DNA of 6,661 bases. Origin: a virus. Lineage: Duplodnaviria > Heunggongvirae > Uroviricota > Caudoviricetes. Position numbers and translations under genes: made by a program. This document shows, piece by piece, positions 2,606 through 3,028 of this stretch. The notes beneath the pieces were generated by a model. That model was not told the DNA's origin. It made no database searches and saw only the letters and a list, made by a program, of their open reading frames with translations. The stretch spans positions 1-6,661 of IMG/VR virus record IMGVR_UViG_2703718778_000002. One strand, 5' to 3'. Position 1 is the stretch's first letter; every line of letters starts with the position of its first letter.

Positions 2606-3028
2606 TTAAAACGGTATGTTATCCCCGTACGGATCATCATTCCCCGCCTGTTGTTTTGCCCTGTTCAGTGCGTCAGTAGCCTGCCCCTGCTGGCCTTTTT
2701 TGCCGCCCGGTCGCGCCGTTCTCGCACTGATTACGCTGTCTGCGATAACCTGCCAGCCCTGCCGCGTTTCGCCGTTCTGGCCTGTCCACTGGCTTACCTG
2801 CATGTTACCCGCCACGCTCACCAGCTCGCCTTTGCGGTGTTTTGCCAGTGCGTCGGCCTGTCTGCCAAACGCCAGGACGGATAACCACATCGTAGCCGTT
2901 CCGTCATCTGCCTGGCTGCACGGCAGGGGGACAGCCATACTCGCCATCGTCATTTGTGTGCCCTTGCTGGTGGTCTTTAACTGTGGGTCAGCCACCAGCC
3001 GCCCGTAAGCCGCTATCTGTGCTGTCAT
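2606..3028 (-). CDS. ssb: Single-stranded DNA-binding protein (SSB) homologue, 140 aa
   Basis: OB-fold core resembles bacterial SSB (VLAFGRQADALAKHRKGELVSVAGNMQVSQWTGQNGETRQGWQVIADSV compared with E. coli SSB [47 protein letters not shown], recalled from memory). It has a Gly/Gln-rich linker and the acidic C-terminal tip DDPYGDNIPF. Start is preceded by GAGGTG and overlaps the upstream stop (ATGA). Confidence 0.85.
   Translation of the reverse strand: MTAQIAAYGRLVADPQLKTTSKGTQMTMASMAVPLPCSQADDGTATMWLSVLAFGRQADALAKHRKGELVSVAGNMQVSQWTGQNGETRQGWQVIADSVISARTARPGGKKGQQGQATDALNRAKQQAGNDDPYGDNIPF

Follow-up and report, generated by a model that had tools for sequence, protein, structure and literature searches.

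Introduction

Among the islands considered here, helper-phage induction, replication and transfer have been shown experimentally only for EcCICFT073 (PMC6092414), the phage-inducible chromosomal island (PICI) of Escherichia coli CFT073 that is the closest described system to the locus analysed below. Its genes run from int through an alpA-type regulator, an Icd-like gene, small ORFs, a DUF4222 gene and a primase gene to the replication origin, after which an 85-aa ORF and a gene for a 136-aa protein that binds single-stranded DNA (an SSB) lead into perC and the head genes. The origin was mapped 3' of pri, where iterons flank an AT-rich stretch, and the rep-ori region drove the maintenance of a plasmid, in a clone that may or may not include ssb and the frame in front of it, which we call orfX (PMC6092414). 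Two sites, cos1 and cos2, have been reported for this island in the literature. The SSB family has also been grouped with Primase and DUF5906 as a replication category of PICIs that colocalises with mapped origins (PMC10111431). The gene is present in the model island, the satellite literature already counts it among the replication genes, and in thousands of E. coli genomes the standard pipeline labels it as SSB. As such it matters little: what we describe is an already known and routinely annotated SSB of a common satellite family, and hence an ordinary one.

What a bacterial SSB does with its C-terminus is well described for E. coli. The last residues, known as the SSB-Ct, form an amphipathic peptide, DFDDDIPF, whose terminal Phe enters a hydrophobic pocket of the partner protein, while its carboxylate touches a basic lip and its Asp residues touch a basic ridge; partner binding is crippled by the Pro-to-Ser exchange of ssb-113, as it is when the Phe is missing, and recombination mediators are among the proteins that dock at this tip (PMC10164576).

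Two further kinds of mobile element offer themselves for comparison. One is bacteriophage P4, whose alpha-dependent replication in vitro is said to need SSB and Pol III holoenzyme and to do without DnaA, DnaB, DnaC and DnaG; P4 itself is not known to carry an ssb gene. The other is the conjugative plasmid, of which the Ssb of the F plasmid is an example: the SSBs encoded in conjugative leading regions are closely related to that of the host, and the incoming single-stranded DNA gives rise to them early in the recipient.

Here we analyse an SSB gene carried by a DNA stretch of 6,661 bases, called the window throughout. An earlier reading of the bare sequence had proposed that this SSB is borne by an element, that it keeps a host-interaction tip, and that it could support the replication of the element or compete for the partners of the host SSB.

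The element and its relation to EcCICFT073

Every gene in the window that has family or PHROG support lies on the minus strand, and the features are collected in Table 1. We assign the element to the Gram-negative PICIs of the EcCICFT073 type, because it shares the gene order of that island, its Pri protein is 90% identical to that of EcCICFT073, and the TCTACC iteron is common to the window and to the EcCICFT073 region 3' of pri. The "element" of the sequence-only reading thereby acquires an identity. The integrase and the AlpA-type regulator, found in every sister island examined, would have their place outside the 6661-base window; in complete E. coli genomes the sister islands carry the integrase and an HTH regulator upstream and either adjoin a tRNA-Pro gene or sit between clpS and cspD. 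Counted from int through the final gene they span about 10 kb, in keeping with the 10-12 kb or so of PICIs of this type.

Table 1. Features of the window, with positions counted from its first base
Feature	Position	Strand	Basis or remark
Small ORFs	6592-5639	minus	supported by PHROG matches alone; in sister islands an Icd-like gene is annotated at that end
DUF4222 gene	between the small ORFs and the primase gene	minus	family match
P4-family primase/D5-type helicase (Pri-Rep), 582 aa	3589..5337	minus	TIGR01613 and D5_N matches
Iteron replication origin (predicted)	3351..3576		11 TCTACC/GGTAGA copies, in both orientations, at 3354-3572
orfX, 92 aa	3025..3303	minus	PHROG 1231; no Pfam or NCBIfam match
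Shine-Dalgarno sequence GAGGTGG, 4 nt before the ssb ATG	3033..3039	minus	read from the sequence
ssb coding sequence, 140 aa	2606..3028	minus	ATG start, TAA stop at 2606-2608; profile, PDB and fold matches
Predicted OB-fold ssDNA-binding domain, residues 1-102	2723..3028	minus	alignment, AlphaFold2 and Foldseek
Short basic linker, residues 103-130	2639..2722	minus	predicted disordered; possible helix at 114-127
Tip DDPYGDNIPF, residues 131-140, predicted SSB-Ct-like docking motif	2609..2638	minus	alignments
Intrinsic terminator, 14 nt beyond the stop codon of ssb	2568..2591	minus	stem GCCGGA/UCCGGC, loop GAAA, U6
Putative cos site	2405..2567	minus	homology to helper prophage region
ClpP-protease/major-capsid fusion	1948-59	minus	family match

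The predicted origin fills most of the space between the primase gene and orfX, the gap from the primase stop to the first ATG of the orfX frame being 234 nt. For the degenerate pattern YCTACC about three matches would be expected over all of the window, and 200 shuffles produced no count as high as the one observed. A scan of the coding strand from pri to ssb revealed no sigma-70-like promoter. With its P4-family primase (TIGR01613, D5_N) placed at an iteron origin, the island resembles P4, and a functional analogy may be that both depend on an SSB whose tip works; it differs from P4 in having no sid, psu or delta, and belongs to the PICI lineage (the distinction between PICIs and P4 is discussed in PMC6092414).

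On the far side of ssb the two islands part. EcCICFT073 continues with perC and a lambda-E-type capsid gene accompanied by a decoration gene, whereas the window continues with the terminator, the putative cos site and the protease/capsid fusion. A 433-nt gap follows ssb on its 3' side and leads to a 75-aa ORF; the idea that this gap is a decayed perC, as a comparison with EcCICFT073 might suggest, was abandoned, since tblastn returned no match. Positions 2405-2571, which take in the putative cos site, share 91.6% identity with the stretch that lies immediately upstream of the small-terminase gene in a lambdoid helper prophage (L009, 1794-1959). Occurrences of the lambda cosN 12-mer, with up to three mismatches allowed, were not above chance, and the cos assignment therefore rests on the homology to the helper prophage region. 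A search of the whole window against all Rfam families at a permissive threshold gave three sub-threshold matches, none of which bears on ssb.

The SSBs of the two islands are 71% identical, as are the orfX products. The EcCICFT073 protein (NC_004431.1, 1384538-1384948; WP_000126698.1) ends in DDPYGDDIPF. Synonymous divergence between the islands is far higher in ssb (dS 1.26) than in pri (dS 0.29), which fits an exchange of modules.

The ssb product belongs to the bacterial SSB family

The 140-aa product matches the SSB profile PF00436 with an E-value of 3.7e-16 and 59.5 bits (Pfam cut-off 26), scores 61.5 bits against the ssb model TIGR00621 (TIGRFAM cut-off 53.95), and matches PHROG 44, the single strand DNA binding protein group, at 2.2e-39; a sequence search of the PDB returned 26 distinct SSB sequences. 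An AlphaFold2 monomer model, built on an alignment of 39 homologues from which the row of E. coli SSB had been left out, reaches a pLDDT above 93 over residues 1-100, where its strands follow one another as in an OB fold, and has a low-confidence tail. When this model was compared with the PDB by Foldseek, all 50 of the matches listed were bacterial SSBs, with target-normalised TM scores of 0.65-0.83. By profile and predicted fold alike, the product of 2606-3028 is a member of the bacterial SSB family with an OB fold, and the earlier assignment of the gene as an SSB homologue, for which a profile search had been named in advance as the check, is borne out.

Compared with E. coli SSB, whose reference sequence was identical to PDB 1EQQ across 178 residues, the island protein shares the OB fold, three of the four stacking aromatics, a disordered tail, the terminal I-P-F, an aromatic residue at -6 and an Asp at -4. 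It is a distant relative nonetheless, the OB domains being 26% identical, and a shorter one, with 140 aa against 178 aa. Its linker has about 28 residues and is basic, whereas that of E. coli SSB has about 57, with an abundance of Gly, Gln and Pro. The alignment places W54, F60 and W88 of E. coli SSB, which stack on single-stranded DNA, opposite W48, F54 and W81; the fourth aromatic, W40, falls opposite Gln39. Position 55 of E. coli SSB, a His that is important to its tetramer, falls opposite Leu49.

The protein finds its nearer company in a clade of short SSBs of about 130-150 aa (represented by P0244-P0384), which begin with MTAQI..YGRL, carry SART.RP at the junction of OB domain and linker, and are 33-55% identical to the island SSB in the same length class. 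Within this wider clade F54 is invariant and W48 at least 90% conserved; for W81 the figure, taken from the close family, is 99%.

Two antisense ORFs on the plus strand, at 2616-3008 and 2507-2884, were treated as by-products of a G+C-rich coding strand; all family, PHROG and PDB matches obtained fall in the minus-strand frame, which is the frame that the searches covered.

The C-terminal tip is conserved and less acidic than that of the host

The sequence-only reading had spoken of an acidic tip ending in IPF, and of this description the ending stands while the adjective holds only in part. The protein ends in ...NDDPYGDNIPF, with low pLDDT along the tail. Of the features of the SSB-Ct it has the terminal Phe, the Pro and the Ile, a Tyr in place of Phe at -6, and the Asp at -4; at -5 and -3, where the host SSB has Asp at both positions, it has Gly and Asn. 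The last six residues consequently contain a single Asp, D136, where those of E. coli SSB contain three, and a further Asp pair stands at -8 and -9. The stretch leading up to the tip, residues 101-130, contains six Lys or Arg and one Asp or Glu. Because Gly stands at -5 and position -3 varies, the island tip may bind the basic ridge of host partners more weakly or more selectively.

Of the close homologues, 104 reach a length of 125 aa or more; 98 of these finish in [ILV]PF, and Asp at -4 and an aromatic residue at -6 are each present in 102; an acidic residue occurs at -3 in 32 of them and at -5 in nine. The terminal Phe is missing in five of the 120 homologues listed. In the wider short-SSB clade (33-55% identity) the tip has the consensus PFDDxIPF, the E. 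coli PICI subgroup having Y-G-D in place of the F-D-D of the clade; D136 is invariant, and P139 and F140 are at least 90% conserved. Careful alignment, at which the motif might have dissolved, thus finds it retained down to about 33% identity.

The linker behaves quite differently. That of the EcCICFT073 protein is four residues shorter and unrelated in sequence, to the point that the two alleles cannot be aligned there, and yet DDPYGDxIPF is kept in both. Pairwise dN/dS values for ssb are 0.07-0.16, at saturated dS, and the gene is under purifying selection. Taken together, the conservation of the tip, the replacement of the linker with DDPYGDxIPF kept, and the low dN/dS mark the tip, on comparative grounds, as a selected feature under purifying selection, albeit one less acidic than the tip of the host protein.

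orfX and its overlap with ssb

The frame that precedes ssb is open over 109 aa from its first ATG, and the 92-aa start at 3303 was preferred; this start agrees with the RefSeq calls in the sister islands (a CDS of 279 nt), and it is preceded by a GAGGGGG Shine-Dalgarno sequence. The ATG of ssb (3028-3026) and the TGA of orfX (3027-3025) overlap as ATGA (3025-3028), and the same 4-nt overlap stands ahead of ssb in EcCICFT073 and in a Klebsiella relative. Co-translation of ssb with the 92-aa ORF, as had been proposed earlier, is made plausible by the recurrence of this overlap, which would allow translational coupling.

The orfX family comprises 157 proteins, nearly all from Escherichia or Shigella and one from Citrobacter. 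Over roughly the first 20 residues its members are basic and variable, the variability being explained by recombination breakpoints inside the 5' end of orfX, and the C-terminal 65 are strongly conserved and helical; as modelled, at low confidence (mean pLDDT 59.5), the protein is a helical hairpin. Compared with its counterpart in EcCICFT073, orfX has a dN/dS of about 0.27-0.30, which suggests a real gene. It is not the packaging-redirection protein Rpp, since RppA is c1503, probably the short hypothetical gene found at the far end of the island, outside the window. An obligatory partnership of orfX with SSB is likewise ruled out, because the Klebsiella relative has an unrelated ORF at the same overlapping position.

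orfX and ssb travel as a cassette

The SSB is widespread. Its exact 140-aa sequence is indexed in 6592 blocks of an assembly collection, and the 717-bp orfX-ssb cassette has 2634 matching places, 2631 of them on chromosomes. Of 5426 complete E. coli genomes 1869 carry it, and a single genome may have as many as six such places. Among the matches listed, nearly all of these places are annotated "single-stranded DNA-binding protein".

The cassette is also polymorphic for presence and absence. One island, L003, matches the window at 97-98% identity along the flanks but has no 717-bp cassette, and 46 bp stand there in place of window positions 2575-3291. Judged from this near-identical island, in which ssb is lacking, the orfX-ssb cassette is dispensable to the island replicon.

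Conversely, the same block is found behind other replicons. From position 3224 or 3271 of the window down to position 1, the orfX-ssb-cos-capsid block recurs in other islands at 97.7-99% DNA identity and encodes the exact same SSB protein, with its upper edge inside the 5' end of orfX. Two of these islands (L008 and L009) have in front of the block P4-type primases of 604-608 aa with TGTTCACC iterons, which we take to be the octamer of the P4 origin; a third (L013) has an AAA_25 RepA-like protein with AAGTGAG iterons. Including the 582-aa primase with its TCTACC iterons, the cassette occurs behind three sets of initiator and iteron and is, as far as its neighbours tell, replicon-agnostic. More distant copies vary further: the SSB of the Klebsiella relative is 69% identical, ends in DDSIPL, is preceded by the unrelated ORF and follows a zinc-binding primase-helicase, and the ssb copy in an Enterobacter record (L004) is truncated.

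Proposed role and alternative explanations

The position of ssb as the last gene of a replication block (pri-rep, iteron origin, orfX, ssb, terminator) leads us to propose that the island SSB probably serves as an accessory supply of SSB for the replication of the satellite and uses host partners through its tip. On this proposal, induction by a helper phage would turn on the rightward operon of the island, ssb would be co-transcribed with the primase gene and translated by coupling to orfX, and the primase-helicase would open the adjacent iteron origin, the exposed single strands being coated by the island SSB both then and later, during the synthesis of concatemers. The tip, read as aromatic-x-D-x-I-P-F, would dock Pol III chi, PriA and partners of the RecQ, RecO or RecJ type and so bring host enzymes onto island DNA, and the protein would top up the SSB pool while helper and satellite replicate together. 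The timing of expression, the coating of DNA in vivo, the identity of the partners and the benefit to replication are the inferred steps of this scheme; the published PICI studies that we searched yielded no experiment on a PICI SSB. A dispensable cassette that is found on several replicons, with no sigma-70-like promoter found between pri and ssb and a terminator after ssb, fits a generic SSB that is expressed with the replication genes. Its dispensability and its reuse by several replicons do not fit the dedicated partner of a single initiator, and we therefore think of the island SSB as a generic and dispensable helper.

Of the two functions offered by the sequence-only reading, support of replication is thus the one we favour, and competition for host partners is weakened. 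In the latter case the tip would divert SSB-interacting proteins of the host from the forks of the helper, or the protein would coat helper single-stranded DNA to no productive end, and the yield of the helper would fall. The conservation of the tip would suit such an effect, its changed acidic pattern could shift partner preference, and PICIs generally interfere with their helpers (PMC6092414). However, when the post-ori genes of EcCICFT073 were expressed singly, only c1503 (RppA) cut plaquing by lambda, and deletion of c1503 restored plaques, with titres nearly those seen on an island-free host (PMC6739421). The orthologues of orfX and ssb lie in this post-ori region and may have been among the genes screened, which makes the argument an indirect one, and RppA acts on packaging, not on replication; interference by the SSB is therefore in our view quite improbable. 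A role chiefly in late synthesis, rolling-circle or recombination-dependent, of the concatemers that cos packaging needs, with recruitment of RecO, RecQ or RecJ-type partners in place of the replisome, is also unlikely, if slightly less so. It draws on the place of ssb immediately upstream of the putative cos site, on the packaging of EcCICFT073 as phage-length concatemers reported in PMC10111431, and on the docking of recombination mediators at the E. coli tip (PMC10164576), but the adjacency to cos may reflect module order alone, no recombinase gene lies beside ssb, and such a role would overlap with an accessory supply of SSB without excluding it.

Several recent reports of phage SSBs that trigger defence systems, together with the defence cargo that PICIs often carry, raise the idea that a satellite SSB modulates host systems sensing foreign SSBs or SSB-coated single-stranded DNA (Retron-Eco8, AbpAB, Hna, DARNA, DRT10), the outcome being either abortive infection triggered against the helper or a shielding of island DNA. 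We regard both the interplay and either outcome as very unlikely here: PADLOC found no match for the SSB, orfX or the small neighbouring ORFs and a marginal one for the primase alone (mad3, E 0.0021), no defence gene is adjacent, ssb stands in the replication block and not in the accessory regions, and the closest SSB from a deposited phage is at most 31% identical. That ssb is a decaying passenger without current function is barely credible. Some sister islands do lack the cassette, truncated copies exist, as in the Enterobacter record, and a few homologues have lost the terminal Phe; against this stand the low dN/dS at saturated dS, the tip kept across a wide clade, and the presence of the cassette in roughly a third of the complete E. 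coli genomes, up to six times in one of them.

Beyond an accessory supply of SSB, a further reading deserves mention because of the derived tip (Y-G-D-x-IPF) and the short basic linker. We speculate, as a doubtful extension, that these could select particular partners, whether replication proteins of the island or helper or a subset of the host partners, and so bias the shared replication machinery towards the satellite, or that they could alter the response of SSB-sensing defence (Retron-Eco8, AbpAB, Hna) while the helper is being induced. If it is true that the SSB measurably boosts satellite replication or biases host partners, this would be one more route by which satellites exploit the machinery of their hosts upon helper induction, with relevance also for the defence systems now being described that sense SSBs. 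For annotation, the use is more immediate and consists of a map that places the primase gene, the TCTACC iteron origin, orfX, ssb, the terminator, the putative cos site and the protease/capsid fusion in relation to one another, and of the evidence that orfX and ssb travel as a cassette.

Relation to phage and plasmid SSBs

Deposited phage genomes contain no SSB closer than 31% identity, and an origin of the gene that could be traced in these genomes is accordingly not supported. The SSBs of conjugative leading regions resemble the island protein in being an extra SSB on a mobile element with a tip of the host type, but the island SSB is of a distant lineage, 26% identical to E. coli SSB, and is carried by a phage satellite. 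For this reason, and with 2631 of 2634 cassette places on chromosomes and plasmid matches that are mostly non-mobilizable, we rejected the view that it is the leading-region SSB of a conjugative plasmid. Plasmid-database matches of the SSB number 102, of which 92 are on non-mobilizable, seven on mobilizable and three on conjugative records, and the closest ones looked at are small and circular, with gene sets resembling those of PICIs.

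Islands within prophages and their probable cos sites

Islands carrying this exact SSB interrupt the large-terminase gene of lambdoid prophages, separating its GpA_ATPase and GpA_nuclease halves, and are helper-embedded PICIs, a type already described (PMC10111431). The head gene of these prophages is, like the gene in the island, a ClpP-protease/capsid fusion, and one sister island is harboured by a Mu-like prophage. The island probably has its cos site immediately 3' of the ssb terminator, since the sequence there is 91.6% identical to the region directly upstream of the small-terminase gene of a lambdoid helper prophage. 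A more diverged cos-like copy starts after the capsid gene, and the two copies parallel cos1 and cos2 of the model island EcCICFT073. Nucleotides 1-35 of the window match Stx phages exactly, and a shared motif of 22-26 nt includes CCTGGTGG, which differs from Chi by one base.

A stretch within the gap after ssb (2207-2462) also holds a promoter-like site and a terminator-like hairpin, together with Rfam matches that all fall below threshold, namely STnc130 (27.6 bits against 55) and ctRNA_p42d; these elements may be part of cosB or of a small RNA.

Positions of the features discussed (window coordinates unless a record is named)
Feature	Sequence	Position	Strand	Remarks
Cos-like copy 2 (start)	window	1-58		more diverged; after capsid gene
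ClpP-like prohead protease/major capsid fusion	window	59-1948	minus	629 aa; NF045540, 888 bits
Promoter-like site	window	2261-2290	plus	gap after ssb
Terminator-like hairpin	window	2358-2376		gap after ssb
Putative cos, copy 1	window	2405-2571		just 3' of ssb terminator; homology to helper prophage
Antisense ORF to ssb	window	2507-2884	plus	125 aa
Antisense ORF to ssb	window	2616-3008	plus	130 aa
Iteron replication origin	window	3351-3576		between primase gene and orfX; 11x TCTACC/GGTAGA, both orientations
Matching cos-like segments	L009 (island with the exact SSB)	1794-1959; 12988-13154
Prophage-embedded island loci	L008-L012	about 2450-15000 in each
Prophage-embedded island locus	L003 (island without orfX-ssb)	5042-17063

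Exchange of modules and relatives

The block running from orfX through ssb and cos to the capsid gene (window 1-3271) shares 97.7-99% DNA identity with L008, L009 and L013, three further E. coli islands with this exact SSB. In these islands it is joined, by recombination within the 5' end of orfX, to different replication modules, one with TGTTCACC iterons and primases of 604-608 aa, the other with AAGTGAG iterons and an AAA_25 RepA-like protein. The TCTACC/GGTAGA iteron of the window is also present in EcCICFT073, in the region 3' of pri.

The fusion gene is borne by a satellite of about 10 kb without portal or terminase genes, and is about 65% identical at the nucleotide level to the fusion gene that the helper prophage itself carries; the capsid genes of EcCICFT073 were reported to be dispensable for transfer.

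Two small circular records are filed as non-mobilizable plasmids. In the K. pneumoniae record (L005; CP033626.1) the primase is followed by SSB, and the PICI-like gene set is complete (integrase, antirepressor, DUF4222, Icd-like) and partly duplicated. This record could represent a satellite that has excised and replicates, or was assembled, as an episome. The likeness of the E. cloacae record (L004; OW969629.1) is limited to gene order: its SSB ends early, after the OB domain, and the 951-aa gene upstream is annotated as hypothetical.

Both plus-strand ORFs antisense to ssb are probably by-products of a G+C-rich coding strand; the family, PHROG and PDB matches at ssb are all in the minus-strand frame, the queries having been minus-strand proteins.
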